A DNA stretch of 64,000 nucleotides, from assembly GCA_937952305.1 (NCBI GenBank), contig CALFZO010000053.1:14401-78400 (forward strand). The letters run 5' to 3'. This DNA is from an uncultured Anaerolineales bacterium (GTDB taxonomy: Bacteria > Chloroflexota > Anaerolineae > Anaerolineales > UBA6663). Below, piece after piece: positions 9,401 to 32,612 of this stretch. The position numbers and the translations under genes were made by a program. The notes beneath the pieces were generated by a model. It was not told where the DNA came from, searched no databases, and saw only the letters and a list, made by a program, of their open reading frames with translations. Positions within the stretch are counted from its first letter, which is position 1; every line of letters begins with the position of its first letter.

Positions 9401-9462
9401 TTGCGCGAGAACGCCAGGCGCGCCATGAGCGCCATCGGCACACCGAACACGATGCGTTGCAT
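6448..9462 (-). CDS. Methyl-accepting chemotaxis protein with N-terminal NIT-like sensor and C-terminal CZB zinc-binding domain
   Basis: ORF 6448..9480 starts on GTG. I prefer ATG 9462 ([18 protein letters not shown]), which has AGGA 8 nt upstream. NIT-like signature [25 protein letters not shown] tip [35 protein letters not shown]-terminus [37 protein letters not shown]...PHEAVH fits the CZB H..W / C.LG.W / H...H pattern. Confidence 0.9.
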
Positions 9463-9531
9463 ATCGTCAGTCCTGTCCACGGCGCCGCCCAGCAGCGCCG
9501 CACTAAAAGTGCATGCCCCGGACGCGCGTCG

Positions 9532-12273: not shown

Positions 12274-12642
12274 TCAGACCGCCCGCGGCGCGGCAAGCAC
12301 GTCGCGGATCTCGGTCAACAGATCATCGATCTGGATGGGCTTGCTCAGGCAGGTGACGCCGTGGGAGGAGGCCTGGGCCATGTAGCCGCGCCCGACATGG
12401 CCGGTGAGCCCCAGAATCGGGACGCCCGGCGTCACCTTGCGCAAGACCCGGATCAGCTGGACGCCATCCAGGCCGGGCAGCATCATGTCCAGCAGGTACA
12501 GATCGAACCGCTCGTCCACGGCCGCCACGATGGCGTCCGCGCCATTCCCCACCGCCGTCACCGAAAAACGCCGGTCGACCAGTTCGTCGCTCAGGAAGTT
12601 GCGAACGTCGACTTCGTCTTCAACCAACAGGATCTTGGGCAT
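12274..12642 (-). CDS. Single-domain response regulator (REC only)
   Basis: ORF 12274..12816 trimmed to ATG 12642 (MPKILLVEDEVDVRNFLSDELV...LYLLDMMLPGLDG...SKP). The longer N-terminus is P/R-rich and lies inside the upstream kinase gene. The start overlaps the kinase stop by 23 nt. Confidence 0.85.
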   Translation of the reverse strand: MPKILLVEDEVDVRNFLSDELVDRRFSVTAVGNGADAIVAAVDERFDLYLLDMMLPGLDGVQLIRVLRKVTPGVPILGLTGHVGRGYMAQASSHGVTCLSKPIQIDDLLTEIRDVLAAPRAV

Positions 12643-14971
12643 GGCAGGTTTCCAGGGAAGGCATGAGAGCGGGCGCCGCCAACACCGGCCCGGCCTCGCT
12701 GTAGTCGTCGAAGCGACCGGAGGCCGGCCCAGGGGGAACAGGCCCGGGCAGCTTGGGACGCGCGGTGGGGAAACGCAGGGTGAAGTTGGTGCCGTGGCCG
12801 GCATGCGAGTCCACACTGATCGTGCCGTTGTATGCGCGCACGATACCGGCCACGATCGACAAGCCCAGGCCGGTGCCCTTCCCGACCGGCTTGGTCGTAA
12901 AGAAGGGGTCGAAGATCTTGGCTCGGATGGTGTCCGGGATGCCGGTGCCGGTATCGGCCACAGTCAACACGAGCTGCGCGGCCGCCTCGTCATAACCAGT
13001 GGCGATCTTGATCTCACCACCGCTCGGCATCGCATCGCGGGCATTGGTGAGGAGATTGATGAGAATCTGGATGATCTGGTTGCGGTCACACTCCAGCGGC
13101 GGCAGGCCGGGCGCCAGGTCCGTGACGACGCTGATGTTGGACCAGCTGCGCAGCTGATGCTCGATCAGCAGCAGCGTATCCTGGACCAGGTGGTCCAGAT
13201 CGGCCGGGCCGGCCTGACCGCCCGAGACACGCGCATAGGTGTGCAGTGAGCGCACGATCTCGGCGCAGCGCCAACCGTTGCGGTGGACCACATCCAGGTT
13301 GCGGCGCAGGTTTTCCGGTGTCAGCGCGCCGTCGTCCAGGCGCCGCAGCAGGCTCTGGCTCACGCCCGTGATCACCTGCAAGGGCGAATTCATTTCATGG
13401 GCCACGCCGGCCGCCAGCGTCCCCAGGTCGGCCAGTTTCTGCGCGTTGAGCATCCAGGCCTGGGCCTGCTTCTGCTCGGTGATATCGGATTGGACCGTGA
13501 CCACCAGGCGCCGACCGGCCATCTCCACCTGGTTGACGCGGGCGGCGGCCGTGAACACCGTGCCGTCCTTGCGCCGGCAGCGCAGTTCGCCGGTCCAGCG
13601 GCTTTCGGACAGCAATTGCGCGTGCAGCTCGGCCACGCCGCCCAGGTTGGGGTGCTTGGCCGTCTCGGCGCTGAGGACGCTGATGTGCTGGCCCGCCAGT
13701 TCGCTGTGAGCGTATCCGAACATGGCATCCAGGGAGCGGTTGGTGAAGATCAGATTGCCGGCCTGGTCGGCCACACTGACACCCTCGTCCAGCCGATCCA
13801 GGATGTAGGCTTGCTGCGCCAGGGCGTCTTCAGCCTGCTTGCGCACCGAAATATCGCGGGTGACGCCGACCAGATCGCAGTCTTGGTGCTCGTTCAACAT
13901 CAAGGTCGTGCTGACCTCGGTCCAGACAGTGGTGCCGTCCCGGCGCAGCAGCAGGATCTGATCGATCCGCTGCCTGGCCGCCGGATCGCCATCCCGAAAA
14001 GCCTCCAGCCGGCCGAGCAGCCCAGTTGTCATCTCCGGCCAGGATTCAGGCGCGATGACGCCGTCCAGTGTCTGGTTCAGCATTTCCTCCGGCGTGTAGC
14101 CGAGCAGGCCGCGTACCGACGGGCTGACGAAGGAGAAGCGCATGGTCTCGGTGCTGAGCACCCAGACCACGTCGGCCGTGTTTTCGGCCAGGAGGCGGTA
14201 CTGGCGTTCGCTCTGGCGCAGGGCCGTGGCCATGGCGAGCTCGTGGGTGATGTCCCGCACGACGTGCACCAAGCCGGTCAGCCGGCCGTCGGACTGGATC
14301 GGAAACGTGGAAACCCGGAACCATCCCGGCAGGGCCGCAAACTGCACTGCCGCGATCTCCGCCTGGAAGAGGCCCTCCGGCACCGACTGATCGCCGAGCA
14401 GCAGTTTTGGCAGGCTGCGCCCCAACACATCGGCGTATTGCAGGCCCAGCCGTTCGATCACGGCCCGGTTGCAGCGCACGATCCGGCGGGCGGTATCGGT
14501 CATGATGACCATGTCGCCGACAGCGTCCAGCGCCGTCTCCCATTCCTGCTTGGCGCGGCGGATGGCATCCTCCACTTGCTTGGCCCGCAGCAGGTAGCGG
14601 ACGCGCCGGCGGACGGCGGCGTAGTTCAGCGGCTTGGTGAGGTAGTCGATGGCGCCAGCCTCGAAGGCCTGATTGATCGAGGCCTCGTTGTCCAGCGACG
14701 TGATGATGAGCAAGGGGACATGCCGGCGCTCAGCATCGGGCGCCAGGCGCTGACAGGCTTCCAGCCCATCCATGACCGGCATCATCAGATCGAGCAACAC
14801 CAAGTCCGGCTGGGCCGCGGCATAGGCGTCGAGACCCTGCTGACCATCGGAGGCCTCGGTCACCTGGTAACCGTCCTGCGTGAACACCAGGCGCAACAAG
14901 GCCCGCACGGCCGGGTCGTCGTCTACGATCAAGATTCGGGGGGCAACTGACTGCGTCAGCACGCGGGTCAC
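12620..14971 (-). CDS. Hybrid sensor histidine kinase: N-terminal REC + multiple PAS + HisKA + HATPase_c
   Basis: 783 aa. REC: RILIVDDDPAVRALL...LVLLDLMMPVMDGLEAC...TKP. PAS-like repeats: WETALDAVGDMVIMTD, YRLLAENTADVVWVL, ILDRLDEGVSVADQAGNLIFTN. H-box GTLAAGVAHEMNSPLQVI. G-boxes VADTGTGIP and GKGTGLGLSIV. The GTG start at 14971 is uncertain. Confidence 0.9.
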   Translation of the reverse strand: MTRVLTQSVAPRILIVDDDPAVRALLRLVFTQDGYQVTEASDGQQGLDAYAAAQPDLVLLDLMMPVMDGLEACQRLAPDAERRHVPLLIITSLDNEASINQAFEAGAIDYLTKPLNYAAVRRRVRYLLRAKQVEDAIRRAKQEWETALDAVGDMVIMTDTARRIVRCNRAVIERLGLQYADVLGRSLPKLLLGDQSVPEGLFQAEIAAVQFAALPGWFRVSTFPIQSDGRLTGLVHVVRDITHELAMATALRQSERQYRLLAENTADVVWVLSTETMRFSFVSPSVRGLLGYTPEEMLNQTLDGVIAPESWPEMTTGLLGRLEAFRDGDPAARQRIDQILLLRRDGTTVWTEVSTTLMLNEHQDCDLVGVTRDISVRKQAEDALAQQAYILDRLDEGVSVADQAGNLIFTNRSLDAMFGYAHSELAGQHISVLSAETAKHPNLGGVAELHAQLLSESRWTGELRCRRKDGTVFTAAARVNQVEMAGRRLVVTVQSDITEQKQAQAWMLNAQKLADLGTLAAGVAHEMNSPLQVITGVSQSLLRRLDDGALTPENLRRNLDVVHRNGWRCAEIVRSLHTYARVSGGQAGPADLDHLVQDTLLLIEHQLRSWSNISVVTDLAPGLPPLECDRNQIIQILINLLTNARDAMPSGGEIKIATGYDEAAAQLVLTVADTGTGIPDTIRAKIFDPFFTTKPVGKGTGLGLSIVAGIVRAYNGTISVDSHAGHGTNFTLRFPTARPKLPGPVPPGPASGRFDDYSEAGPVLAAPALMPSLETCHAQDPVG

Positions 14972-15154: not shown

Positions 15155-18100
15155 TCAGTTGGGCCTAATCAGGCTGAGCGGCTCAACGCGCGGCGACATG
15201 GCTTTGGGCCGCACCGGCGCCGGCGGGGCCGGGTCGGCCGGGCTGTCCGGCAGGCGGAACTGACCGACCAGGGCTTTCAGGGCAGCCGCCCGGGCGGCCA
15301 GCGTCCGGGCATTCTGGTCCACATCCTGGACCTGCGAGCTCATCTGCTCAGCGCTGGCGCTGACTTCTTCCACGGCGGCGCTGTTCTCCTCGCTGACACT
15401 GGCGATGTTCTCGATCGCCTGGGTCACCGCGGCCGATCCGGACTCCATCGTGCCGGTTGCGGCGGCATTGGCAGCGGCGGCCGCGTTCACGGCCTCAACG
15501 GCCGCCGTGAGGGCGCTGGCTGCCGTGAGCATGTCCCGCGACACCTTGACCGTGCCGCCCGCCCGACTTTGGGCCTTCTCGGCCGCCGCCAGAATCCCGG
15601 CCAGGGCTTCGCCAGCCTGGTTGACGTGCTCGGAGCCGCGGTCCACCGCCTGGACCCCCTCCGCCATGGCGTGCACGGCCTCGGCTACGGCCGCCTGGAT
15701 GCCCGCGATCAGGCCGCCGATCTCCTGCGTCGCCTGGGCCGAGCGTTCCGCCAGCTTGCGGACCTCATCCGCCACCACCGCAAAGCCGCGGCCGTGTTCG
15801 CCGGCCCGGGCCGCTTCGATCGCGGCGTTGAGGGCCAGCAGGTTGGTCTGCGACGCGATGGTCTCGATCGTTTCCACGATCGTGCCGACCTGGGCCGACC
15901 GCGCCCCCATCTCCTGCACCTTGTCCGCCGAAGCCCCGACTCTGGCCTTCAGGCTGGACATGTCGGCTATCGTCTCCTCGACGATGCGGGAGCCGCTGCG
16001 CGCCGCCTCCGCCGCCGCCAGGGTCTCGCGGGTCACCGTTTCGGCGTTGCCGGACACCTGCTGAATGGCCGCGCTGATCTCGCCGGTCGCCGCCGTGGCG
16101 CGGTGCACGGCCGTCGTCTGGGCCTGCGTGCCGCGCGCGACCGACTCGATTGCCTGCCGCATCTGGGCGACCGAGGCGGCGGTGCGCGTCACGCTGGTAG
16201 TCTGCTGCGTGGTGCCCTGGGCGACCTGCTGCATCGTGGCCGCAATCTGGCCCGTCGCCTGACCGGCCTGGCCGGCGGCTGTGGCCAACTGCCCGGCCGA
16301 CGCCTGGACGGCGGCCGCGTTGTCGGCCACCTGGCCGATCAACTGGCGCAGATTAACCACCATCTGCGCCAGCGCCTGCCCCAACCCGTCCTGTTCAGAG
16401 CGCGGCTGGATATCACGGGTGAGATCGCCGGCCGCCACGGACCGGGCCAGGGCGACGCTGGCGCGCAGGAAATTCAAGAGGTCATGGAGCGCTGCAGCCA
16501 GGGCGCCAATTTCGTCCTCCGACTCCACGACGACGTCGCGGGACACGTCGCCGCGCCGCGCCACATCCGAGATGGCCGCCACCATCGCCTCCAGCGGCCC
16601 CACGATCAGGCGCGAGACCGCCAGCGCCAGGAGGCCGGCCAACAGCGCGGCCACGGCTCCAGCCAGCGTGACGCCGGCTTCAGCCGCGTTGGCCGCCGCC
16701 AACGCTTCCGCTTCGGTCTGCGAGACCACCACCAGCCAGTGCAGGGCTTCGACGGCGGGGCGGCTGGCCGCCTCCACCCCGCGGACCGGCGCGGGGGCCA
16801 GCAGGCTCGTTTCGCCTCCGAACGGAGCCGTCAGGACCGCGCCGTCGGCAACGCTGAGGCGCTGCCACAATTCCGGCTCGGCGGGCAACAGCCCGGCGGC
16901 CGTCACGCGCTCGCCGCTGGGCAACCACAACGCCACGGCGCCGGTCTGGCCGAACCCGGCCTGCGCCAGGCTCTCCGCCATCGCGGTCACGGCATACGTC
17001 GTGCGCAGAACGCCGATGACGGCGCCGGCCTGGTCACGCACCGGCACGGCCAGATCGATCCCCATCAGCCCCGCACTGTCGTCGTACTCCGGCTGGCCGA
17101 TGAACAGGCCGCCCCGACCGGCGGCGTAGGCGGTCTGCCACCAGTCTTCGTCCGATTGCACGTAGTCCGAGGTCCGGTTGGTGGCTGCCACCACGGCGCC
17201 GAAGCGATCGGTGACGAACACCTCGCGGTTATCCGGGAAACGGGCCCGCAGCTGGCGCAGGCCGTCGGCCAGCGGGCCAGCCAGCCGGGCGGCCACCAGC
17301 GGGGCGGTGTCATCATCAGCGGCATCCGCCTGCCGCCAGGCCTGGTCCAGCTTTTCCAGATCGGGCTGGAGGCCCGCCAGGGTAGCCGCCGCCGGATAGG
17401 CGGCGTTGGCCGCCGCCAGTTGGGTCTGCAGGCCGGCATCCAGGGTGAAAGCCTGCAACTGATCCAGCGGCCGAGACAGGGCGGCACCGATCCAGTCGCT
17501 CTGCGCGTGCGCCAGGTATTGCAGGTGCTGGCTGGTATCGGCGACCAGGCGGCGGCGGGCGTTGGCCTGGGCCCCAACGCCGACGAGGCCGATGGTGAGC
17601 ACCAGCATGCCCAGGAAGACCAAGATGAACTTGGTGTTGAGCGAGAAGCGCCGGTACTGCCGGACGACCGCCACGGCCGCTAGCAGCAGCACGAGGACGA
17701 CGAAGCCATTGATATAGAGGGCGCTGTTGGGCACGCTGGGTGAGGGCCGGGCCGGGCCAATCACATCCAGCGCCGCCACCGTGCTGGCCGCCAGCACGGA
17801 AGCCAGCACCCCGGCGGCCGTCTGCGCCCGGGGCAGCAGCGTAATCGCGATCACCATCCCGATCAGGAGCATGAACGCGCCGAACTGCAGGCCAAAGCTG
17901 GCGCCGGCGCCGCTCCAGACCTCGACCGCCATCTGGACCAAGGCCACGCCCAGCAGAAGCACAGCCGCCGACGTCATCCGGCCCTGCCGGACCAGGACCA
18001 AGGCGACGAGGTCAAAGACCAGCGTGGCGATCTGGAGCGCGAGCGTCGTCGGCGCGGGCAGCTGCCCGGCGGCGCTGGCCAACGATGCGATCAGGCCCAG

Positions 18101-18196
18101 CAAGTTTAGGCCGGCCAAAGCGCCGACCAGCCAGAGGCTATTGCGCCTACGCGTGCGGACGGCGTCATCCGACTCAGAGTTCAGGGATAAGGACAT
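15155..18196 (-). CDS. Methyl-accepting chemotaxis protein with multi-TM N-terminal region, Cache-like domain, HAMP, MA
   Basis: 1013 aa starting at ATG 18196, with GAGG 8 nt upstream. Several hydrophobic helices occupy the first roughly 200 aa. Cache-like stretch [31 protein letters not shown]...[23 protein letters not shown]. Tip motif [34 protein letters not shown]. Confidence 0.9.
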
Positions 18197-18254: not shown

Positions 18255-21200
18255 TCAGGCCGCCAACACCGGTGCGGGTAACGGGACGGGCGGCGCGGCT
18301 GGAACCGGCTGGGCCTCCGCGGCCATCAGTTGAAAGTGGGCGACCGCCCCTTCCAAATCACGCGCCAGCGCCGTCAGCGCCTCGGCCGCCAGGCCCACCT
18401 GCCGCACTTGCGCGCTCATCGCCTCAGCCGAAGCCGAGGCTTCGTCCACGGCGGCGGCATTCTCCGCGCTGGCACTGGCGATACCGGCGATGGCGCGCGA
18501 GGCTTCCCGGGCGCCGGCAGCCATTTCATCCGTCGCGGTCTGGTTGGATTCGACGACAGCGCTGACTGCTTCCATGGCCCACAACAAATCGTGCGCGGCC
18601 GCGCTCATGGCCTGCGTGGACTGCCGGGCCGCTTCGGCCTGGGCATTGGCGGCTTCGGCCGCCTGCAGGATGGCGTTCAGGGATTGGCCGGCCGCCTGCG
18701 TGTGCTGGGCGCGGGCCTCCACCGCGCGGGCGCCCTCGTCCATAGCGCGCACGGCGGCCGCCACGGACAGCTGGATGGCGCGGATCAGCGCGCCGATTTC
18801 CTTGGTGGCGGCGCCCGCCCTCTCGGCCAGATGGCGCACCTCGTCGGCCACCACAGCAAAACCGGCGACGTTGAACCGGAACAGCACGGCACTGTCGGCG
18901 CGCAGCCCGACCTGCACCAGGCCGGGCTGGTCCGGGCGGGAGACGCCGACAAATTTGTACAGCTCCCGGTCCACGGTGCGGCGCTGAATACCCTGACAGA
19001 CGACGCCCTCGCGCTGGTGCAGCAACTGCCGGAAGGCGTAGGTCTGGCTCTTGGGGTCGTCCGAGAAGCGGAAGCCAGCCTTGCCAGGCTCGTTGCTGTA
19101 GACGACCACGCCGTCGCCGTCGGTGACGGTGACGACCTCCAACCCGGCCAGACGCGCCAGCCGGTCCCAGAAGGCGGGCTCACCGGTGGGCTTCGCCAGT
19201 ACCAGGACCTGCGCGATCAGCCGGGCGGCGGCGATCATGTATTTGTCCAGCAGGCGCTCCACCTGCTGAGTCGCTTGGGCGTCAACGCGGGCCGCTTCGA
19301 TGGCGGCGTTGAGCGCCAGCAGATTGGTCTGTGAGGCGATGTCGTCGATCGTCTCGACGATGGCGCCAATCTGGTCCGAGCGTTGCCCCATCTCACGCAC
19401 ACGCGCCGCTGAGTCGCCCACCTGCGCGCGCAGGGTCTCCATACCGGCGATGGTCTCCGCCACCAGCTGCGTCCCGGTGCGCGCGGCCTGGGCGACGCTG
19501 GCGGCTTCGCGCGTGACCGCGTCCGCATTGCCGGCCACCTGCTCCAGGGCCGTTTCGATTTGCCGGGCCATCGTGTTCGCGTTGCCCACGGCCTGCGTCT
19601 GGTCCTGGGAGCCGGTCACCACGCCGTCCGCGGCCCGCTGCATCTGTTCGACGGCCGCCGCTGTGCGCGTCACGGCCTGCGTCTGCTGCTGCGTGCCGTC
19701 CGCGACCTGCTGGATCGTGGCCGCGATCTGTTCTGTCGCCCGCCCGGCCGGGCCAGCGGCCGCCGCCAGTTGGTCTGAGGCGGAGCGGACGGCGCCGGCG
19801 GCCTCGCCCACCTGCCGCAGGAGGCCGCGCAGATCGACGACCATGCGCTCGAAGGCGTGGCCCAGCTCATCCTGGTCGGAGCGCGGCCGAACCTGGAGCG
19901 TCAGGTCACCGGCGGCGATCTGGTCGGCGACGCCCGTCATCTCACGCACAAAGCCGGTCATGCGCCGGAAAGCGCGGCTGAGGGCGCCGAGCTCGCCGCT
20001 GCCCAGGTCGGGCACTTCCTGGCGCAGATCGCCCACCGCGAGCGCGTCGGCGACCGCCATCATGTGCCCGAGCGGCCGCGCGATCGCGGCTGCCAAGCGC
20101 CAACTCAGCCAGGCGCCGATGGCGGCCAACAACAGGCCTGACCCGAAAAAGATCCCCAGCGTGCGCGCCTGCCCGGCTTGCAGTTCGGCGGCAAAGGCCT
20201 GGAATTCGTCCTCATAGGCGCTGACGCCGATCACCCAATCGTAAGGCGCGAAGTAGGCCAGCCGCGCGATCTTCCAGCGCGGCGCGGCCTCGCCGGCGTT
20301 CTGCCAGCGGTAGCGGGCGGTCCCAAACTCGCCCGGCGGCAAGGCCAGGGCCGTCTGCACGATCTCCTGAATCACCGGCTGGCCGTCGGCGTCGCGCATC
20401 TCCCAGATATCTTCGCCGTCCCGCTCGCCGTTGCGCGAGACAATGTAGCGGCCGCGGTCTTCGCCCTGACCGCCCAAGATGTAGACGTAGCCGGTCTGGC
20501 CGACGCGCGTCTCGTACAGGGCGTGGCGCAGGGCGGGCACGCTGTCTTGGCGGACGCCAACGTAAATCATGCCGAGGATGGCGCCGTCTGCAGCCGTCAA
20601 CGGCGCGTAGGCCGTCAGGTACCAGGCGTTGACGACGTAGGCGACGCCGTGATAGGTCTCGCCCTGGAGGATCGCGGCGACGACGGGGTTGGACGCGCCG
20701 TCCGGGTTGACGGCCGGGATATAGGTGCCGATGGCGCGCCGGCCGTCGGTCGTCGGCACGGTGGTGGCCACCCGCAGCATATCGCCGGCGGCATTCATAC
20801 GTTGGAACAGCGTGGCCGTGCCGCCCACCATCTGAGTCACCTGGTCCACCACCGGCGTCATGACCCCGGCGTCGGCGTTCTGCCCGAGCCAACGTCCGCC
20901 CACGAGCGCCTGCGGGAGCGCCACCACGGTCACGGTCTGATTTATCTGATGCACGGCTTCCCAGGAGGCCGTAGCCGTACCTAAGCCGAAGCCGCCACTC
21001 TGCGCCAGGACGTACTGGGCCACGCTCAGGTTGTGATCCACCTGTTGGCGCAAGGCCTCATCCTGGGCTTCGACCAGGCTCATCACACCCTGGGTGATGT
21101 GGTCCAGGTCGGCGGCCACCAACTTCTCGACCTCCGTCTGAGCCGCGGTCGAGAAGCTGGTCATCTGCCAGGCACCCACGCCGATCAGCACGGCCGCAGT

Positions 21201-21272
21201 GACCACGACGCCGCTGGTGCCCAACAGCCCGAGTTGGAATCGGAGAGACAGCGATCGGAGGCGCGCAAACAT
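18255..21272 (-). CDS. Methyl-accepting chemotaxis protein (double Cache-type sensor, HAMP, MA) with a domain inserted at the signalling hairpin tip
   Basis: 1005 aa starting at ATG 21272, with AGGA 9 nt upstream. Cache-like stretches: GGTATLFQRMNAAGDMLRVATTVPTTDGRRAIGTYIP...GETYHGVAYVVNAWYLTAYAPL and TGYVYILGG...APYDWVIGVSAY. The MA motif is split: [12 protein letters not shown], about 140 aa, then [17 protein letters not shown]. Confidence 0.9.
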   Translation of the reverse strand: MFARLRSLSLRFQLGLLGTSGVVVTAAVLIGVGAWQMTSFSTAAQTEVEKLVAADLDHITQGVMSLVEAQDEALRQQVDHNLSVAQYVLAQSGGFGLGTATASWEAVHQINQTVTVVALPQALVGGRWLGQNADAGVMTPVVDQVTQMVGGTATLFQRMNAAGDMLRVATTVPTTDGRRAIGTYIPAVNPDGASNPVVAAILQGETYHGVAYVVNAWYLTAYAPLTAADGAILGMIYVGVRQDSVPALRHALYETRVGQTGYVYILGGQGEDRGRYIVSRNGERDGEDIWEMRDADGQPVIQEIVQTALALPPGEFGTARYRWQNAGEAAPRWKIARLAYFAPYDWVIGVSAYEDEFQAFAAELQAGQARTLGIFFGSGLLLAAIGAWLSWRLAAAIARPLGHMMAVADALAVGDLRQEVPDLGSGELGALSRAFRRMTGFVREMTGVADQIAAGDLTLQVRPRSDQDELGHAFERMVVDLRGLLRQVGEAAGAVRSASDQLAAAAGPAGRATEQIAATIQQVADGTQQQTQAVTRTAAAVEQMQRAADGVVTGSQDQTQAVGNANTMARQIETALEQVAGNADAVTREAASVAQAARTGTQLVAETIAGMETLRAQVGDSAARVREMGQRSDQIGAIVETIDDIASQTNLLALNAAIEAARVDAQATQQVERLLDKYMIAAARLIAQVLVLAKPTGEPAFWDRLARLAGLEVVTVTDGDGVVVYSNEPGKAGFRFSDDPKSQTYAFRQLLHQREGVVCQGIQRRTVDRELYKFVGVSRPDQPGLVQVGLRADSAVLFRFNVAGFAVVADEVRHLAERAGAATKEIGALIRAIQLSVAAAVRAMDEGARAVEARAQHTQAAGQSLNAILQAAEAANAQAEAARQSTQAMSAAAHDLLWAMEAVSAVVESNQTATDEMAAGAREASRAIAGIASASAENAAAVDEASASAEAMSAQVRQVGLAAEALTALARDLEGAVAHFQLMAAEAQPVPAAPPVPLPAPVLAA
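18867..19286 (-). other. In-frame insertion of about 140 aa replacing the AGEHG U-turn of the MCP signalling domain; possible PDC/Cache/PAS-like fold
   Basis: Boundaries read from codons: CGC(R) 19289-19287, then GTT(V) 19286, through GTC(V) 18869-18867, then GCC GGT TTT GCT GTG GTG (AGFAVV). Insert sequence: VDAQATQQVERLLDKYMIAAARLIAQVLVLAKPTGEPAFWDRLARLAGLEVVTVTDGDGVVVYSNEPGKAGFRFSDDPKSQTYAFRQLLHQREGVVCQGIQRRTVDRELYKFVGVSRPDQPGLVQVGLRADSAVLFRFNV. Confidence 0.7.
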
Positions 21273-21498: not shown

Positions 21499-23628
21499 TC
21501 AGCGGACGGGCAGCGCGGCGCTGCCGTTCGCGGCCGCCGCCTGAGCCGGCCGACGATGACCGGTCTCGAGGGAGGCCAGCGGCGGCGGGCTGGCGGCGGC
21601 TCCGGCCGACCATTGAAATTGCGCCACAACTTCGCGCAGGGCGCTGGCTTGTTGCGCCAGGGTCTGAGCAGAGGCGGAGAAGGCCTCCACCTGCGTGTGC
21701 ACGTCCGTGGCCGACGTGGAGACGGCCTGCACGGCCGCACTGGTCTGCGCGCTGACCTCGGCAATGGCGTCAATGGACACTGAGACTGTGGCCGCATTGG
21801 TCGTCATCGCTTCCGTGGCGGCCGTATTGGACGTGACCACGTCTGAGACGGCCTCGACCGCAGTGACCACATCGGCGGAGGCTTCCCGCATCATCAGCGT
21901 GGCCGCCAGCGCCTCCTCCGCCTGGGCGTTGACAGCCTGGACGGTCTCCATGATCTGGGTGAGCGCCGCGCCGGCGGCATGGGCGCGAGCGACGCCGTCC
22001 TCCACCTCATGCGCACCGGATTCCATGGCCGTGACGGCTTGCTCCATCACGGCGCGGATGTCGCGCACCAGGCCGCCGATCTCCTTCGTCGACGCGGTGG
22101 CGCGCTCGGCCAGTTTGCGCACTTCGGCCGCCACCACGGCAAACCCCTGGCCGTGCTCGCCAGCCCGGGCTGCCTCGATGGCGGCGTTGAGGGCCAGCAG
22201 GTTGGTCTGAGCGGCGATATCGCCGATGGTCTCCACGATCGCGCCGATCTGCTCCGAGCGCCGCCCCATTTCGCGCACGCTCCCGGCCGAGGCGCCGACC
22301 GTGACGCGGATCGCGTCCATGCTCTTGATCGTAGCCGCCACCGTGTCCGCGCCCTCGCGGGCGGCCGCGGCGGCCTGGATCGAGTCGCGCGTGACGACTT
22401 CGGCGTTGTCGGCCACCTTCTCCACCATCTGGGTGATTTGGTCCACGACCTGAGACGCCCGAGCCACGGCTGCCGCCTGCGCGCGGGCGCCCTGGGCGAC
22501 GCCGTCGATGGCCTGACGCACCTCGGACATGGACGCCGTGGTGGCGGCCACGCTCTCGGCCTGATGCAGCGTGCCATCCGCGATCTGTTGGATGGTGGTC
22601 GCGATCTGGGCGGTCGCCTGGTCGGCCTCGCCGGAGGCTGCCGCCAGCTGGTCGGCGGCCCCATCCAGGCGGGTTGCGCTCTCGGCGACGCGCGCAATGA
22701 CGGCGTGCAGAGCAGCCGCCATCGTCGCCAGGGCTTGGCCAAAGACATCCCCAGCCGAGCGCGGCGTCACCACGACCGTCAAATCCTGGCGGGCCAGGCG
22801 GTTCGCGGCCCCCGCCGCCGCCTGCAGATAGGCGACGAGGTCGGCGAAGGCGCTGGCCATGAGGCCGACTTCGTCGTGCGTGACCGCCGGCAGGCTGACC
22901 GCCAGGTCGCCGCGCGCCAGTTGTTGCGTGGCGGCGGTCAGCCGGACCACCGGCGCCGAAATCCAGCGCGCCAGCAGGGCAGCCAGACCCAAGGCGGCGA
23001 GGCTGGCCGCCAGGCCGATGATCAGGATCTGGGTGTACAACTGGGACGTCAGCGCTTGCGCGCTCTGGTTGGAAAGCTCGGCGAAGCGGTAGTTGACGGC
23101 GACGAGGTCGTCCAGGGCCGCCCGCATGGCGGCCAAGGCCGCCTCGGCCGCCGCCGCCGACACCGGTTCGCCGGCCAGCAGCGCCGCGCGCTGCGGCGCG
23201 AAGTCCGCATAGGCCCGCTGAAACGCGGCCAGGGCATCCGCTTCTGACTGCTGTAAGGCTAATTCGCCCTGGGCTGCCAGGGTCGCCGTAAACTCAGGGC
23301 TGAGCGTGGTCAGCCATTCGGATTCGTAGCGCGCCAGCACGGCCGTCAGCGCTTCGTCGGCGGCGCGCGCGGCGGCGCGCTGCGCGGCCTGAGCTTCCGG
23401 CGCGCTGTCTGCGTTCGCCACCACCTGCACGGCGACGTTGAGGCGCTCGCGCTCCAGGTTGGCCTGATCCAGATTGATGATCGGGATCAACATGAAGCCA
23501 TACAGGTTGTCGTACTCGGCCTGCAGCCGCCCGAACCCTGTCAGCGCCGCTGCGGTCAGCCCGGACACCGCCAATGGCGTGATGGCCGCCACAAGCATCA
23601 ACTTCCAGATCAGCTTGAGATTGCGCAT
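21499..23628 (-). CDS. Methyl-accepting chemotaxis protein (helical sensor, HAMP, MA)
   Basis: ORF 21499..23817 trimmed to ATG 23628 ([24 protein letters not shown]), with GAGGAGAGG upstream. The discarded N-terminus is R/W/P-rich. Tip motif [34 protein letters not shown]. Confidence 0.9.
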
Positions 23629-23728
23629 CGCGCCTCTCCTCGGGGAGGTACCCGCCGGCCAACGCGCGACGGCCGCCCCTGGGGGTGGCCGTCGCAGAGG
23701 CTGACGCCGTGAGCGATACCCGGGCGGC

Positions 23729-24187
23729 TCAGGCCGCCACCGGCAGATGGTCCAGCGTCGATTGTTCCTGAAGCGACAAAACCTTGCCCAGGTCCAGCAG
23801 GATGACCAGGCGCTCACTGACCTTGGCGATGCCGCGGATGAAAGCCGAGTCCACGGTGGTCACGATCGGCGACGGCGGTTCGATCGCGTCTTCGCTGACG
23901 CGCAGCACTTCGCTGACGCCGTCCACGACGATGCCGACCGTGGCGCCGCCCATCTCGACCACGACGATGCGCATGTCTTTGGTGGCCTCGCCGCGCGCCA
24001 GGCCGAAGCGCTTGCGCAGGTCGATCACCGGCAGCACCTTGCCGCGCAGGTTGGTGACGCCCTCCACGAACTGCGGAGCGCGCGGCACCGCCGTGATCGT
24101 CTGCATCTTGATGATGCCTTCGACTGCGGCGATGTCCACACCATACTGCTCATTGGCGAGGTCAAACACGACGAGTTGGTGCTCCAT
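23729..24187 (-). CDS. cheW: Chemotaxis coupling protein CheW
   Basis: 152 aa: [63 protein letters not shown]. This is the typical CheW-like domain. Confidence 0.95.
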
Positions 24188-24223: not shown

Positions 24224-25129
24224 TCAGGCGGACGCCGTGACACAATTCCGGCCGGCGGCCTTGCTCTGATACAACAACTGGTCGGCGCGCCGCACGAGGC
24301 CGTCCGGCGTATCGTCGGCCGCGCTCAGGGCGGCGCCGATGGAGACGGTCACGCGCAGGACGCCGGCCTCGGTGGACAGCGCCGAACGCTCGATCAGCGC
24401 GCGCAGCTTGTTGGCGACGCCGGCGAGCTGTTGGGGGTCAATCCCCAGCAGCAAGATCATGAATTCCTCGCCGCCCCAGCGGCCGACGAAATCCGTGGCG
24501 CGGACGCTGTGGCGCAGCGTCTCGGCCACCATCTTGAGAACCTCATCGCCAACGTCGTGGCCGTAGGTGTCGTTGACTCGTTTGAAAAGGTCGACGTCGA
24601 CAAACAGCGCCGCGAACGGCATGCCGGTCTCGCGCGCCTCGACCAGACAGGCCTCCAGCTTGCGCCCCAGGAAACGCCGATTGCCCAGCCCGGTCAGCGG
24701 GTCGCGTTCGGCGGTTTCCGCGAGCTGACTGGCGCGTTGCCGGGCCGCGGTCAGGAGCGAGTTATCGCTGAACGATTCGACCGCCCCGACAATCTGGCCG
24801 GAGGCGTCCAGCATCGGCGCCACCCGCACCAGCACCGGCACGCGGTGGCCGCTGCTGTGGCGCAGATAGACCTCGGCTTCCCGCACCGCGCCATCCTGCA
24901 TGGATTGCGCCAGCGGGCAGAGGCTGTGGCACAGAACGCAGCCCTGCTCGTTGACGTGCGAGAGAATGTTATCCGAGCAGGGTCGACCAACGACCTCTTC
25001 AGCGGCGTAACCGGAAATGCGCTCCGCGCCTTTGTTCCAGTACGTGATGGAGCGCTGCCGATCGACGAAGTACACGCCATCGTAGAGGTTATCGAGAACG
25101 CCCTTGTAAAACTCACCCGTATCCGACAT
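24224..25129 (-). CDS. PAS-GGDEF diguanylate cyclase (GGEEF active site, RxxD I-site, Cys-rich PAS core)
   Basis: ORF 24224..25156 trimmed to ATG 25129 (MSDTGEFYKGVLDNLYDGVYFVDRQRSITYWNKGAERISGY). GGDEF domain: DPLTGLGNRRF...DVDLFKRVNDTYGHDVGDEVL...RATDFVGRWGGEEFMILL. Confidence 0.9.
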   Translation of the reverse strand: MSDTGEFYKGVLDNLYDGVYFVDRQRSITYWNKGAERISGYAAEEVVGRPCSDNILSHVNEQGCVLCHSLCPLAQSMQDGAVREAEVYLRHSSGHRVPVLVRVAPMLDASGQIVGAVESFSDNSLLTAARQRASQLAETAERDPLTGLGNRRFLGRKLEACLVEARETGMPFAALFVDVDLFKRVNDTYGHDVGDEVLKMVAETLRHSVRATDFVGRWGGEEFMILLLGIDPQQLAGVANKLRALIERSALSTEAGVLRVTVSIGAALSAADDTPDGLVRRADQLLYQSKAAGRNCVTASA

Positions 25130-25327
25130 CGGCTGTCTCTGACGGCGGTTGCGCACTCTCCGACCCAGCTGTCCGCCGCCGAGGGAGTCGAACCCTCGGC
25201 TTCCGGCACCTGGCGGCTGCCAGGCTTGGTCCTGCCCAGCGGACGGCCGGGCCGGAACGCCGCACTGCTGCGGCGGCTGTTGCTCCCACCGTCTGGCCCA
25301 GAATAGGCGCGTTCATCACCGGCGTCA

Positions 25328-25366: not shown

Positions 25367-25508
25367 AGGGCCGCCCCAGCGGCTGGGCCAGGAGGGGTTG
25401 GCCGGCCCAAGCGGCGCCGATCTAGCCAATTCAAATGGACAGGCGAGCGGAGCCGCTCGGCGGCACAGGCGAAGGGCGCCTGATCCTGGGGGATTTTATG
25501 GACCTGGC

Positions 25509-26033
25509 TTAGTGGCTGTTGACCGACGGGCGGGCAGGCACGGGCAGGGCAGCTGCGGACAGGCCGCGGTTGGCGCCTTCGCGCAGCGCCAGCTGAACCG
25601 TGATCGTGCCGCACTCACCCTGGAAGGGGACAATCAGGCGGGCAAAGTCGAGGGTCGAGATGGTGGCGCCGCGTCCAACCAGCAGCGTGGGCGGCGAGAT
25701 GGTGGCTTCGTATCCGGCCTCGGACAGCTTCACGCTGGCGCGGCCGGTGATCACATTGCCGAGCTCGGCCACGCCGCTCTGGGCCAGGCCGTCGAATTGG
25801 GTCAGAGATTCCCCCAGCATGCGGGAGCTCAAATTGATAGCGGTCGTCTGGCTCATGCTGTAGAACACCGTCCCCTGCACGCGCCCGACCAGGCTGAGGA
25901 TGACGGTGACCTCGTCGGTCACGTAAGGCTGCTTGTCGAGCGACAGATCCCCCCGCGTGACGGCGACCTGGGCCTCGGCCTGCAGGACCTCAAAGGCGGC
26001 ATCGAGGAACGGGTTGAGGAATTTGACGTTCAT
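25509..26033 (-). CDS. cheX: CheX-type CheY-P phosphatase (paralogue 1)
   Basis: 174 aa: MNVKFLNPFLDAAFEVLQAEAQV..., with one S-x3-E-x2-N site (SGVAELGNV). It aligns along its length with the adjacent paralogue. Confidence 0.8.
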   Translation of the reverse strand: MNVKFLNPFLDAAFEVLQAEAQVAVTRGDLSLDKQPYVTDEVTVILSLVGRVQGTVFYSMSQTTAINLSSRMLGESLTQFDGLAQSGVAELGNVITGRASVKLSEAGYEATISPPTLLVGRGATISTLDFARLIVPFQGECGTITVQLALREGANRGLSAAALPVPARPSVNSH

Positions 26034-26572
26034 CAGAGGCCCTTCGAAGCGCCGACCGGCAGCCCTCCTGCGCCAGCCAGCAGCGGCACATGGGCGCTGC
26101 GCCCGTCCGCGGCGCTCTCGCGCAAGGCCAGATGCACGGTGATTTGGCCCAGCTCGCAGGTCAGCGGCACCACGATCCGCGAGAAGTCCAAGGTCGAAAT
26201 CGTCACGCCCTGGCCGAGGATCAGCGTCGGCGGCGAAATCTCGGCGGCCGCACCGGAGTTGGCCAGCTTGATGCTGGCCCGGCCGGTGATGACGTTGCCG
26301 AGTTCGGCCACGCCGCTCTGGGCCAGCCCATCGAACTGCGCGAACTCCTGAGCCATCATGCGCGACACCAGCGCCAGACCGGTGGCCACCGACAGGCCGT
26401 ACAACACCACGCCCTGCACCTGGCCCACCAAGCTGAGCAGCACCGTCACCTCATCGCTCGTCATAGCCGATTTCTGCAGAGTCAGGTTGCCGCGGTTCAG
26501 CCCCACGCCGACCTCAGCCTGGAGGACTTCGGTGGCCGCCTCGACAAACGGATTCAGGAACTTGACGTTCAT
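26033..26572 (-). CDS. cheX: CheX-type CheY-P phosphatase (paralogue 2)
   Basis: 179 aa: MNVKFLNPFVEAATEVLQAEVGV...SGVAELGNVITGRASIKL. Its stop overlaps the next start by 1 nt. Confidence 0.8.
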   Translation of the reverse strand: MNVKFLNPFVEAATEVLQAEVGVGLNRGNLTLQKSAMTSDEVTVLLSLVGQVQGVVLYGLSVATGLALVSRMMAQEFAQFDGLAQSGVAELGNVITGRASIKLANSGAAAEISPPTLILGQGVTISTLDFSRIVVPLTCELGQITVHLALRESAADGRSAHVPLLAGAGGLPVGASKGL

Positions 26573-26601: not shown

Positions 26602-27390
26602 TCAGCTGAGGCGCTGATAGAACGAAATGCCGGAACTGCGCAGTCCCAGTTCCTGGGCGCGCGGCACGATCTCGGTACCGCCCACAAACAGGATCCCGCC
26701 TGGGCGCAGCGCTTGCTGGAACTTGCGATACAGATCGGTCTTGGCCGCCTCGGTGAAGTAGATGACCACGTTGCGGCACACGATCAGATCGAAGTCCCCC
26801 TCGAACGCATCCGCCAGCATGTTCTGCTCTTGAAACATGACCCGCTTGGCCAGCGCATCGGTGACGAAGAAGGGTGGGCCGCCCGGCTGGAAGAACTGCT
26901 GGCGCTGTGCGGCCGTGACGTTCTGCACGTCGTCCGCCGAATACGGGCCGCGCGCCCGGGCGCGCGCCAACGCGCCGCGGTCCAAGTCGGTAGCCAGCAG
27001 GGTGTGCCGGCGGCCGGGCGTCTCTTCTTCGAGCAGCATGGCCAGGCTGTACGGCTCCAGGCCGATGGAGCAGCCGGCGCTCCACACGCGCAGACGCTGC
27101 CGCCCGGTCAGCAGCATGGGCAGGATGGTCCGCCGGAGGGCCTGCCAACGCTCCGGGTCACGAAAGAACGCCGACACGTTGATGGTCAGGTAGTCGCGCA
27201 GGCGCGCCAGTTCGGTGGTGTCGGCGCGCAGCCGCTTCAGGTAGTCCGGCCACGTCGGCGCTCCCACGCGCACCAACCACGAATCCAGCCGGCGCTTCAT
27301 CTGCTCATCTTTGTAGTGGTCAAGGTTGATCTGCAGCAAGCTGCGGATGGAGTGCTTGACCAGGCTGTAGACTTCCGCTTCCATACTCAC
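26602..27390 (-). CDS. cheR: Chemotaxis protein methyltransferase CheR
   Basis: 262 aa: LTINVSAFFRDPERWQAL...LRVWSAGCSIGLEPYSLAMLL...FDLIVCRNVVIYF. These are CheR SAM-binding motifs. Confidence 0.95.
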   Translation of the reverse strand: MSMEAEVYSLVKHSIRSLLQINLDHYKDEQMKRRLDSWLVRVGAPTWPDYLKRLRADTTELARLRDYLTINVSAFFRDPERWQALRRTILPMLLTGRQRLRVWSAGCSIGLEPYSLAMLLEEETPGRRHTLLATDLDRGALARARARGPYSADDVQNVTAAQRQQFFQPGGPPFFVTDALAKRVMFQEQNMLADAFEGDFDLIVCRNVVIYFTEAAKTDLYRKFQQALRPGGILFVGGTEIVPRAQELGLRSSGISFYQRLS

Positions 27391-27407: not shown

Positions 27408-28508
27408 CTATTCCCGCACCAGGCGCTCAATCGCGCCAGCCACGTCGGGTAACGGCACGACGACGTCAGCCGCGGCCGCCTCGACCACGCTGCGGGGCAT
27501 CCCCCACACAACGCACGACGACTCATCCTCAGCGATCACGCGTCCGCCCGCGCCGCGAATCAACAGGGCGCCGTTGGTGCCATCCCGGCCCATGCCGGTG
27601 AGCACCACCCCCACCACGGCGCCGCGGTAGCGCTGCGCCACGGACGCCATCGTGACATCAATCGCCGGACGCACGCCGTGCACGGTGGGGTTCTGGTTCA
27701 GGCTGACGCGGTCGTGCGCGTCCAGGGTCATGTGGAAACCGCCGGGGGCCAGCAGCACCTGGCCGGTCTCCGGCGTGTCGCCGGGCTCGGCCTCTTTCAC
27801 CCGCAGGGCCGCCAACTGGTCCAGACGCTCCGCCAGGGAGCGCGTGAAGCCAACCGGCATATGCTGGACGATCACGACCGCCGCCGACAGCGTGGCCGGC
27901 AGCGCGGAGACAACCGTACCCAAAGCGCGCGGCCCACCCGTGGAAGCCCCGATGACCACAACTTTGTCGCGGCCGCTGAGCCGGCGCGTCGTTTTAGGGC
28001 TGGCGCGGTCGCCCTTCGGCGCCGGCGGCGCCGGGGCCGCGGGCGGGGCCGTAATCGCGCGCACGCGCGCCTGAGCTGCCGCGCGGACCTTGGCCACCAC
28101 CTCGTCCATGACGACGCTCATGTTCGCCTTGGCGGCCGGTTTGGCGACGAAGTCCACGGCCCCCCAGGTGAGCGCCTGCACGGTCTCGCGCGCGCCCTCG
28201 GTCGTCAGGCTGCTGAGCATCACCACCGGGCGCGGGTCCGTGGCCATGATCTGCCGGAGCGTGGACAGACCGTCCAGCCGCGGCATTTCCACGTCCAGGG
28301 TGATGACGTCTGGCTGCAGGCGCGGCAGCAGTTCTAACGCCTCGCGGCCATCCCGCGCCACGCCGGCCACCGCTAACCCGGGCGTCTCGCCCAGGTGCTT
28401 GCTGATGGTGAAGCGCATGTAGGCGGAATCGTCCACCACCAACACGCGCACCGGCGCCGCCGGGCCAGATACCGGCGGCCGGGAGGCCGCGGCCTGTACC
28501 GTGGCCAT
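27408..28508 (-). CDS. cheB: Protein-glutamate methylesterase/deamidase CheB (REC + methylesterase)
   Basis: 366 aa. REC: VRVLVVDDSAYMR...VITLDVEMPRLDG. Esterase domain: VVIGASTGGPRAL...VIVQHMPVGFT...TGMGRDG. Confidence 0.95.
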   Translation of the reverse strand: MATVQAAASRPPVSGPAAPVRVLVVDDSAYMRFTISKHLGETPGLAVAGVARDGREALELLPRLQPDVITLDVEMPRLDGLSTLRQIMATDPRPVVMLSSLTTEGARETVQALTWGAVDFVAKPAAKANMSVVMDEVVAKVRAAAQARVRAITAPPAAPAPPAPKGDRASPKTTRRLSGRDKVVVIGASTGGPRALGTVVSALPATLSAAVVIVQHMPVGFTRSLAERLDQLAALRVKEAEPGDTPETGQVLLAPGGFHMTLDAHDRVSLNQNPTVHGVRPAIDVTMASVAQRYRGAVVGVVLTGMGRDGTNGALLIRGAGGRVIAEDESSCVVWGMPRSVVEAAAADVVVPLPDVAGAIERLVRE

Positions 28509-28510
28509 GG

Positions 28511-28867
28511 TTAGCCGAGCGCCTTGGTGATCGCGGCCAAGACGCGGGCCGGCTCGAAGGGCTTGACGACGAAATCCTTGGCGCCGGACTTGATCGCTTC
28601 CAGCACCACCGACTCCTGCCCGAGCGCCGTCAGCATGACCACCCGGGCGTTCGGGTCGCCCGACCGGATCGCCTTGAGGGCGGCCAGGCCGTCCATCTCC
28701 GGCATGGTCACATCCATCAGCACGGCGTCCGGCCGGTGGGCCTTGTACGTGCTGACGGCGACGGCGCCGTTCTCGGCCTCCATAACCTCATGGCCGTTGC
28801 TGACCAGCATCTTGGAGATGCGTACGCGCAGGAACTCGGCATCGTCGACAATTAGAATCTTCGCCAT
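28511..28867 (-). CDS. cheY: Chemotaxis response regulator CheY
   Basis: 118 aa: MAKILIVDDAEFLRVRISKML...AVLMDVTMPEMDGLAALKAIR...DFVVKPF. Confidence 0.95.
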   Translation of the reverse strand: MAKILIVDDAEFLRVRISKMLVSNGHEVMEAENGAVAVSTYKAHRPDAVLMDVTMPEMDGLAALKAIRSGDPNARVVMLTALGQESVVLEAIKSGAKDFVVKPFEPARVLAAITKALG

Positions 28868-28927: not shown

Positions 28928-29428
28928 CTAGAGATCCCGCGTCTCGCTGCCCAATACCCGCACATTCATCCGGCCATTGGCGACGTACAGGCGCACCGTT
29001 CGGCCTTTGTTGCCGCCGACCTCCTCAGCCGAGACGCGCAGCCGCAGGCCAGACAGCGTCGCCCGGGCGGCGGCGATGTTGCGCTCGCCGATGTTGAGCG
29101 CCTGTTTGAAGCTCGACAGCGCCAGCATGTTGGCGCCGCCCACCACGCGCACCACCAACCGGCTGCGCAAGGCCCCCAGCTGTTCCACCGTCTGCAGCAG
29201 CCCGGCGATGCCGCTGTCTACATACTTGGGACACTGCGGATCCGCACCGTTGGTGCGCTCGGGCAGAACGGCATGCAACAAACCGGTCACCCGCGTCAGC
29301 GGGTCATACACCCCCACGGCCACACACGAACCCAGCCCATAAGCCACCAGCACATCGCCGGGCTCGCGACTGACCTTGATTTCGCCCAGGCCTACGGCCA
29401 GACTGTTCCCTTCGATGACCGCTTCCAT
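28928..29428 (-). CDS. cheD: Chemoreceptor glutamine deamidase CheD
   Basis: ORF 28928..29449 trimmed to ATG 29428 (MEAVIEGNSLAVGLGEIKVSREPGDVLVAYGLGSCVAVGVYDP...GLLHAVLP), with GAGGGG upstream. The longer form would overlap the cheC stop at 29439. Confidence 0.9.
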   Translation of the reverse strand: MEAVIEGNSLAVGLGEIKVSREPGDVLVAYGLGSCVAVGVYDPLTRVTGLLHAVLPERTNGADPQCPKYVDSGIAGLLQTVEQLGALRSRLVVRVVGGANMLALSSFKQALNIGERNIAAARATLSGLRLRVSAEEVGGNKGRTVRLYVANGRMNVRVLGSETRDL

Positions 29429-29438
29429 GTCCCCTCGC

Positions 29439-30044
29439 CTATGCCGCAAACGCTGCCAGCGTTGCCGGATCCGGGATCACCCAGAAGTCCAGGTCGACGG
29501 CCCGGTCGTCGCGCATGAGCTGGCCCTGCATCAGCAGCACATGCTCGCCGACACCGCCGCAGACCGCCACAATAATGTCCAGCACAGCGCCGACCATATC
29601 GACCATGACGGCCGGCGGCGAGGGCCGGGCATCCACCTTCAAGCGCTTGGCGATGGCGTTCAGGAAGAAGGTGCCGGTCAGGTTGCCGACCTCCGCCAGG
29701 GCCGAACGCTCGATCGAGCCCAGCTGGGTGGTCGTCCCCGGCGGCTCATCCATCAGCAGGTCGGCCAGTTCCAGGGCCTTCGGATACGGCATGACGAGCA
29801 TGATCTGGCCGGAGATGTCGCCGGTCACCTGCAGGTAGATGCCGACCGCTTCCGACTCAGGCCCGCCCGCCAGGGCCGCGATCTCCGAGATCGGGACCAG
29901 CCGCGCATCCGGGTCCGCCACTGTGATGGTGGCGCCGATCATGCTGGCCAGGCCGTCGGCGGCATTGCGGATCCCTTCCGAGGCCATGATCCGCAGCAGG
30001 TCGTGCAGGCGTTCGTCAAATCCAGCGGTTGCGGTTGCGTTCAT
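29439..30044 (-). CDS. cheC: CheC-type CheY-P phosphatase
   Basis: 201 aa: LLRIMASEGIRNAADGLASMIG...SIERSALAEVGNLTGTFFLNAI. This fits the CheC D/S-x3-E-x2-N signature and N-terminal pseudo-repeat, and the gene sits next to cheD as in Firmicutes/Thermotoga-type clusters. Confidence 0.85.
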   Translation of the reverse strand: MNATATAGFDERLHDLLRIMASEGIRNAADGLASMIGATITVADPDARLVPISEIAALAGGPESEAVGIYLQVTGDISGQIMLVMPYPKALELADLLMDEPPGTTTQLGSIERSALAEVGNLTGTFFLNAIAKRLKVDARPSPPAVMVDMVGAVLDIIVAVCGGVGEHVLLMQGQLMRDDRAVDLDFWVIPDPATLAAFAA

Positions 30045-32537: not shown

Positions 32538-32612
32538 CAGGCCGATCCTAGCATCCCGGTCAGGGGAAAACCGTAAAGCACCCATAAAAGAACGACAAAG
32601 CCGCCATGAAAT

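Follow-up and report, generated by a model that had tools for sequence, protein, structure and literature searches.

A predicted PDC/Cache-like domain in place of the signaling-hairpin U-turn of a chemoreceptor from an uncultured Anaerolineales bacterium

Results

Gene layout and site of the insertion

The stretch of DNA analyzed here (the window; 64,000 nucleotides, positions 14,401 to 78,400 of contig CALFZO010000053.1, GenBank assembly GCA_937952305.1) comes from an uncultured Anaerolineales bacterium of the phylum Chloroflexota and contains a chemotaxis (che) gene cluster. One methyl-accepting chemotaxis protein (MCP) encoded in this cluster carries a domain of 140 amino acids (aa) at the tip of its cytoplasmic signaling hairpin, and its gene is called the tip-insert MCP gene below. 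The encoded protein has the order transmembrane helix 1 (TM1), periplasmic Cache_3-Cache_2, TM2, HAMP(s), and signaling hairpin with a PDC domain at the tip. Its features, in window coordinates, are as follows.

18255..21272, minus strand: tip-insert MCP gene, an open reading frame (ORF) of 1005 aa
20178..21146, minus strand: periplasmic ligand-binding region, aa 43-365 (Pfam PF17201, Cache_3-Cache_2)
19287..19952, minus strand: cytoplasmic N-arm of the hairpin, aa 441-662 (gapless alignment to neighboring MCPs and flank conservation)
18867..19286, minus strand: inserted PDC/Cache-like domain, aa 663-802, in place of the hairpin U-turn (sequence, homologs, and predicted fold)
18282..18866, minus strand: cytoplasmic C-arm, aa 803-997 (gapless alignment to aa 804-997 of the neighboring MCP_15155 and flank conservation)

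The Cache_3-Cache_2 match (E=2.6e-93, 313 bits) lies between both predicted transmembrane segments, and HAMP was also matched by Pfam. The hydrophobic segments at aa 14-32 and aa 371-389 give a topology of TM1, periplasmic ligand-binding domain, and TM2, which places the insert in the cytoplasm. The MCPsignal domain (PF00015) is well above its gathering cut-off (89.1 versus 34.6 bits, E=4e-25) and is split into two stretches, the N half stopping at profile position 63 and the C half restarting, in relatives, at position 68/69.

The two arms are collinear with those of adjacent receptors. Residues 441-662 align without gaps to aa 576-797 of MCP_15155, residues 804-997 align without gaps to its aa 804-997, and the MCP at 21499..23817 aligns in the same way. 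The sole difference in these alignments is the exchange of 6 turn residues for about 141 aa, and the heptad length of the bundle is unaltered. Each hairpin arm comprises approximately 155 aa, and the CheC/CheD context is consistent with heptad class 44H, a putative assignment taken only from arm length and collinearity with the two neighbors. The conserved U-turn [AS]-G-[EQD]-x-G-x-G with its contiguous hairpin is absent from the protein, with aa 663-802 standing there instead, and at the sequence level this loss is the defining departure from the MCP family. The junctions read R/VDAQ and FNV/AG (slash, border of the insert), the first residue of the insert being Val and the last ones Asn-Val.

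An earlier note on this DNA, made from the letters alone, had described an in-frame replacement of the AGEHG turn by 140 aa, written in host-like codons and set against six other complete MCPs with an intact turn. The replacement proved to be exact (aa 663-802, window 18867-19286), and the GC content at third codon positions is 0.89 in the insert and 0.88 and 0.82 in its flanks, with no discontinuity in overall GC. Pfam matches and alignment likewise bear out the intact turn in the six canonical MCPs of the window, which are encoded by the ORFs at 1910, 4200, 6448, 9532, 15155, and 21499.

Conservation and distribution

The identical protein is present on three or more contigs of different origin, one of them from the Joint Genome Institute (JGI) metagenome 3300006417. 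Orthologs that carry the insert show 51-69% identity to the window protein, and a homologous insert occurs at the same point in a protein from an Anaerolineales metagenome-assembled genome (MAG) (P0002, 62% identity) and in a more distant ortholog (P0006), which also has a C-terminal hemerythrin domain.

An exhaustive phmmer (HMMER) search of 1.84 billion representatives, with just the insert as query, retrieved 503 clusters at E<=1e-3, of which 155 reach E<=1e-10 and 18 reach E<=1e-30. Retrieval of 155 representative clusters at E<=1e-10 by the insert alone excludes chance. A word-indexed homology search with the insert alone or a domain profile returned nothing or two short proteins only, which reflects the sensitivity limit of that search, since exhaustive HMMER gave 503 clusters.

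Architectures were mapped on the best 150 matches, on which the insert was placed together with the adjoining 100 aa of each arm (the end of the N-arm and the start of the C-arm). In 75 clusters the domain lies exactly between the N-arm end and the C-arm start, and 11 fragments are consistent with that position. It is N-terminal to an intact MCP signaling domain in 21 clusters, C-terminal to short MCPs in 19, and without detected MCP arms in 25. Across 74 tip-insert clusters the insert measures 136-141 aa, with exactly 140 aa in 49 of them. The insert defines a new PDC/Cache-like sequence family, with at least 503 representative clusters in many phyla and at least three architectural contexts.

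Ratios of nonsynonymous to synonymous substitution rates (dN/dS) were calculated by NG86 between the window gene and its ortholog in locus L002, giving 0.26 for the insert, 0.26 for the periplasmic ligand-binding domain, 0.27 for the C-arm, and 0.41 for HAMP plus N-arm. By this sequence comparison the insert is under purifying selection, about equal to that on the ligand-binding domain and the C-arm.

A scan of species-representative genomes with a query alignment of 10 closer sequences gave 287 loci, and architectures were taken from the best 80. Among these 80, 16 loci have tip-insert genes, all in Chloroflexota (Anaerolineae or Bellilinea types). One of them (L008, NZ_LGHJ01000012.1) belongs to a cultured Anaerolineae isolate, Bellilinea caldifistulae GOMI-1, whose tip-insert MCP of 959 aa has the layout 4HB_MCP_1, HAMP, tip PDC, and C-terminal CZB. 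This species is described as a non-motile filament. In a neighbor-joining tree of the very conserved hairpin arms, directed at the question of whether the insertion arose once, tip-insert and canonical MCPs were not separated, and the largest clade with at least 90% tip-insert members holds 31 of 64.

Conservation of chemoreceptor features

The tip-flanking helices of Tsr and TM1143 carry trimer contacts as well as contacts to CheW and CheA-P5. In the tip-insert family (74 clusters), the consensus of the tip-flanking motifs on both the N and C sides hardly departs from the one seen in 91 canonical MCPs. When methylation sites were searched for by the strict consensus [ASTG][ASTG]xx[EQ][EQ]xx[ASTG][ASTG], at least one was found in 54 of the 75 tip-insert clusters versus 88 of the 94 canonical relatives.

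Predicted fold and conserved residues

The insert has no above-threshold Pfam model and no NCBIfam match, and PDB sequence searches, whether by single sequence or by profile, gave nothing significant for it. AlphaFold2 (AF2), run on the insert with a 49-sequence family alignment, yielded a model with a mean predicted local distance difference test (pLDDT) score of 91.5 and a predicted TM-score (pTM) of 0.86. The model has helices at insert residues 2-30, 37-46, 83-90, and 130-139 and strands at residues 51-55, 60-64, 95-97, 109-116, and 123-129. The top Foldseek matches of this model are all PDC/Cache sensors (DcuS, CitA, DctB, and WalK; also TlpB and Tlp3), with DcuS matching at E=4.4e-5 and a TM-score of 0.62. 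The model and its matches place the insert in the PDC/Cache sensor fold, in line with the long helix and following beta-rich PDC/Cache/PAS-type fold that had been read from the sequence, and its confidence describes a folded domain rather than a disordered segment.

A second AF2 model, which covers the domain and the adjoining 70 aa of either arm and used a 36-sequence alignment, has a pLDDT of 88.4 and contains uninterrupted helices at residues 2-100, running from the N-arm into the N-helix of the domain, and at residues 201-279, running from the C-helix of the domain into the C-arm. No solved structure of this combined arrangement of arms and domain was found. As a hallmark of Cache domains, a long N-terminal helix extends TM1 and a C-terminal helix leads to TM2 (PMC4822843), and in the insert these helices are predicted to plug the domain into the two hairpin arms. 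The extracytoplasmic location between two transmembrane helices that is typical of Cache is not true of the insert, which is cytoplasmic by topology. Because Cache families are principally extracellular, except for the small YkuI_C and Diacid_rec families (PMC4822843), a Cache-type module inside the cell is unusual in itself.

In a 142-sequence domain alignment, a polar core formed by Q81, Q98, R103, D106, R117, D119, and Q125 is common to all architecture classes. The tip class additionally fixes R73 (86%), R86 (95%), and W40, and it has a basic cluster consisting of R73, R86, R103, K111, and R117. Cys97 (insert aa 97, window ~18996-18998) adjoins the invariant Gln98. In the same alignment it occurs in 56% of the tip-insert domains, 31% of the C-terminal (cytoplasmic) domains, and 0 of the 21 extracytoplasmic domains of the N-terminal class, a distribution that could point to a thiol or redox function or be no more than a bias between compartments.

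The domain family in other proteins

Outside the tip position, the domain occurs in several arrangements. In MCPs of the N-terminal class, it lies between TM1 (~aa 7-27) and TM2 (~aa 280-320). There it accounts for the first half of the roughly 250-aa extracytoplasmic region, in which dCache_1 is weakly hinted at. SpoIIE/PP2C phosphatases contain 1-3 copies, with 2-3 in tandem, ahead of the phosphatase domain, and some of these proteins also have HAMP (P0178, P0218, P0245, and P0251; L029, L054, L074, and L075). Short MCPs carry the domain at the cytoplasmic C-terminus. Many members stand alone as proteins of about 160 aa, with a hydrophobic segment at the N-terminus followed by the domain (L030, L035-L038, L047, L050, L058, and others). 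These non-tip architectures are found in Bacillota (Heliobacterium), Fusobacteria, Alpha- and Gammaproteobacteria, Acidobacteriota, Spirochaetia, and Chlorobium.

The stand-alone proteins of about 160 aa occur in MAGs of Gammaproteobacteria, Spirochaetia, and Dehalococcoidia and may be exported binding proteins. P0192, P0223, L039, and L045, the last two from Bacillota MAGs, are soluble MCP-like proteins of ~515-540 aa with two domain copies, one near the N-terminus and the other, the tip copy, right before the C-arm. The C-terminal end of L041 resembles a nucleotide cyclase-like domain as judged by eye only. A 3012-aa DUF5801/VWA repeat protein (P0179) was rejected as a family member, its match being spurious and of low complexity.

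The tip-insert cassette itself is preceded by Cache_3-Cache_2, 4HB_MCP_1, dCache_1, dCache_3, or no periplasmic domain and is followed in some members by CZB or hemerythrin. Being combined with such varied N- and C-terminal modules, it behaves as a portable signaling module.

The chemotaxis gene cluster

The minus-strand gene order around the tip-insert gene is cheA, cheC-like, cheD, cheY, cheB, cheR, a PAS-GGDEF gene, cheW, an mcp, the tip-insert mcp, an mcp, a REC-PAS histidine kinase gene, and four mcp genes. The neighbors to which coordinates were assigned individually are as follows.

30081-32585, minus strand: cheA (Pfam)
29439-30044, minus strand: cheC-like (Pfam)
28928-29449, minus strand: cheD (Pfam)
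28511-28867, minus strand: cheY (Pfam)
27408-28508, minus strand: cheB (Pfam)
26602-27390, minus strand: cheR (Pfam)
24224-25156, minus strand: PAS-GGDEF diguanylate cyclase gene, between cheR and cheW
23729..24187, minus strand: cheW, two genes upstream of the tip-insert MCP gene (Pfam CheW, 6.3e-41)
21499..23817, minus strand: adjacent canonical MCP gene, turn intact (Pfam, alignment)
15155..18196, minus strand: adjacent canonical MCP gene (MCP_15155), turn intact, used as the collinear reference (Pfam, alignment)
12620-14971, minus strand: REC-PAS-histidine kinase gene, which breaks the run of MCP genes
6448-9480, minus strand: gene for an MCP with NIT and CZB domains, one of seven tandem MCP genes

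The seven tandem MCP genes (window 1910-23817, minus strand) all lie downstream of the che operon. The listed start of ORF 21499-23817 (GTG, 772 aa) is probably over-extended because the frame overlaps cheW (23729-24187), and the true start seems to lie about 63 codons further in. The PAS-GGDEF gene inside the cluster may point to a connection of the Che pathway with cyclic di-GMP. Directly upstream of cheA (32914-37851, minus strand) are genes for a Ser/Thr protein kinase and for a large BTAD-AAA_16-TPR regulator. The ORFs at 25398-26351 (plus strand) and at 39580-40305, 40509-41993, and 46050-47954 (minus strand) have no Pfam match at E<=1e-5, and some of the long ORFs without Pfam matches in this window (70% GC) may be spurious antisense frames.

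Of 17 tip-insert loci, 8 have a Pfam-confirmed CheW gene no more than 6 kb from the tip-insert gene, and in L004 and L013 the two genes directly adjoin each other. A search for a conserved non-che partner gene beside tip-insert genes found only CheW, MCP paralogs, and antisense ORFs of the high-GC type. From its place in a che cluster with a CheW gene nearby, the tip-insert MCP is a candidate for coupling to CheW and CheA.

Discussion

Comparison with known receptors and sensors

The tip-insert MCP shares its TM1, ligand-binding domain, TM2, and HAMP topology with canonical MCPs, such as the long-heptad receptors found with CheC/CheD (Thermotoga TM1143 and B. subtilis McpB) and, for the tip contacts, E. 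coli Tsr. It also shares with them the long antiparallel hairpin, which is collinear with those of its neighbors, the conserved tip-flank motifs, and the location in a che operon. Canonical MCPs have the U-turn A-G-E-H-G-x, whereas the tip-insert MCP has a folded domain of 140 aa there. Alexander and Zhulin reportedly distinguished, in 2007, MCP length classes that differ by symmetric heptad indels and not by a tip domain. MCPs with a C-terminal CZB domain (TlpD), a hemerythrin domain (DcrH), or an N-terminal PAS domain (Aer) likewise receive intracellular input. The sensors of TlpD, DcrH, and Aer are located at chain termini, near the membrane-proximal or adaptation end, whereas the tip insert sits at the membrane-distal kinase-control tip. 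To our knowledge, the extra cytoplasmic MCP sensors known so far are all at chain termini. Full-text literature searches, in which the coverage of subscription journals is limited, turned up no account of an MCP with a domain in its U-turn, and neither Pfam nor NCBIfam has a model for such an MCP family. The design with a sensor-type domain nested at the tip is conserved in many Chloroflexota and appears to be undescribed.

The PDC/sCache domains of DcuS, CitA, and WalK (PDB 3by8, 1p0z/2j80, and 4ywz) have the same long N-helix, PAS-like alpha/beta core, and same-side C-helix as the insert model, and in all of them, as in the insert, both termini plug into the antiparallel helix pair of a dimeric helical bundle. 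They differ in being extracytoplasmic and joined to TM1 and TM2, whereas the insert is cytoplasmic and joined to the arms of the MCP hairpin, and the sequence identity is only 10-23%. YkuI_C and Diacid_rec are, like the insert, Cache-type domains of the cytoplasm (PMC4822843), and YkuI (2bas and 2w27) is among the Foldseek matches. These two belong to other sequence families and are attached un-nested to EAL or transcription-regulator domains, whereas the insert is nested.

A candidate dual-input receptor

We lean toward the view that the protein is a functional transmembrane dual-input chemoreceptor with a cytoplasmic ligand sensor at its kinase-control tip. In this receptor, the six-residue U-turn is replaced by a single-module PDC/Cache-type sensor domain, whose N-helix, in the model, continues the N-arm and whose C-helix runs into the C-arm, so that the domain caps the coiled coil in the way periplasmic PDC sensors sit between TM1 and TM2. 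Binding of a cytoplasmic small molecule would move the C-terminal helix of the domain relative to its N-terminal helix, and this shift would act directly on the adjoining helices that make the CheA/CheW and trimer contacts. The receptor would combine a periplasmic input through Cache_3-Cache_2 with an intracellular input at the kinase-control end. A sensor role is supported by the positions of the family elsewhere, between TM1 and TM2 of MCPs and ahead of SpoIIE/PP2C phosphatases, and by the polar core common to all classes. The conserved flanks, the methylation motifs of 54 of the 75 clusters, and the che surroundings speak for a receptor that still serves the Che pathway. The ligand is probably anionic, for example, a carboxylate- or phosphate-bearing metabolite, because the tip class has the basic cluster described above. 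The analysis establishes the insertion with its conservation and predicted fold, the purifying selection on it, the continuous helices of the model, and the che surroundings; we infer ligand binding by the insert, its coupling to CheA/CheW, and the direction of signaling.

Several observations weigh against the dual-input reading. The best Pfam match of the insert, sCache_3_2 (E=0.019), is below threshold (15.5 bits versus a cut-off of 28.4), and no member of the family has a known ligand. The arms-plus-domain model has its lowest confidence at the C-terminal junction (pLDDT 61, residues 201-210). The window protein contains no strict methylation motif, only the degenerate SAENAA and VDEAS, and 21 of the 75 family clusters also lack one. 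Conservation of the flanks could partly reflect coiled-coil packing or recombination with canonical paralogs; the arm tree fails to split tip-insert from canonical MCPs. In addition, three receptor dimers converge at their tips in Tsr/TM1143 arrays, and, by analogy with this geometry, six extra globular domains of ~15 kDa each, just past the trimer contacts, may be incompatible with canonical trimers-of-dimers or with the baseplate of CheA and CheW.

The same steric concern, which follows from the established geometry of arrays, is also a ground for regarding the tip domain as an array-modulating or partner-binding module rather than a small-molecule sensor. Such a module would occupy the space beyond the tip and thereby change or block trimer-of-dimers formation or CheA/CheW docking, with the receptor serving as an array terminator, spacer, methylation sink or decoy, or dock for a different partner. 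The degenerate methylation motifs of the window protein fit this idea, the CheW genes that often adjoin could encode a dedicated adaptor, and PDC and PAS domains can make protein contacts. However, in every other context the family occupies a sensor position, between TM1 and TM2 or before output domains, and all classes conserve a set of polar residues that resembles a pocket. Furthermore, the trimer and CheW contact motifs are kept over at least 74 clusters, which would be unexpected in a receptor that never docks. We regard a modulator, the strongest of the alternatives, as rather unlikely. Among the options raised in the earlier note, namely, a cytoplasmic sensor, a receptor excluded from arrays, and an array modulator, the evidence favors the cytoplasmic sensor.

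It is improbable that the MCP coiled coil is a mere stalk, with signaling other than via CheA or with the PDC domain as the output end. The PAS-GGDEF gene within the che cluster and the existence of soluble family members with two domain copies would suit this scheme, but it is contradicted by the che cluster itself, the proximity of CheW, the conserved CheA/CheW-contact flanks, and the methylation motifs in most members, and we know of no output activity of PDC domains. That the insert is an artifact or a selfish element, i.e., the product of a chimeric assembly, an intein, a mobile-element remnant, or part of a decaying pseudogene, is scarcely credible, and no observation in its favor was made. 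Misassembly, a doubt raised when the insertion was noticed, is contradicted by the occurrence of the same protein on several contigs and by the orthologs with the insert, including P0002 and P0006. An intein or mobile element, named alongside it, does not agree with the junction residues, which are not intein-like, or with the Foldseek result, which indicates a PDC fold and not a Hint or nuclease fold, and a search of the borders for terminal repeats or target-site duplications gave chance matches only. The third-position GC content, which matches the host gene, and the dN/dS of the insert argue in the same direction.

Implications

In chemoreceptors, no part is more conserved than the hairpin tip, which converts receptor conformation into kinase control, and how the signal from a ligand gets there, over ~200 angstroms of bundle, is a long-standing question. 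Specialist interest in the insertion should be high because it affects this mechanistically central region. Extending the dual-input reading, we put forward tentatively, as a possibility short of the probable, that these proteins form a widespread undescribed chemoreceptor class in which the kinase-control tip is itself ligand-gated, with a metabolite acting directly at the CheA/CheW interface. A ligand-gated tip would bypass the ~200-angstrom transmembrane relay while being integrated with the periplasmic signal, and, if true, each trimer would have to make room for six extra domains through a non-canonical geometry of the trimer or the baseplate.

A natural input right at the kinase-control end would allow direct tests of models of tip conformation, and the tip sensor could be a template for building cytoplasmic inputs into engineered chemoreceptors. 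The cultured carrier Bellilinea caldifistulae GOMI-1 makes experiments feasible. For the chemoreceptor family as a whole, a family of tip-grafted sensors would challenge the assumed universality of trimer-of-dimers and baseplate packing.

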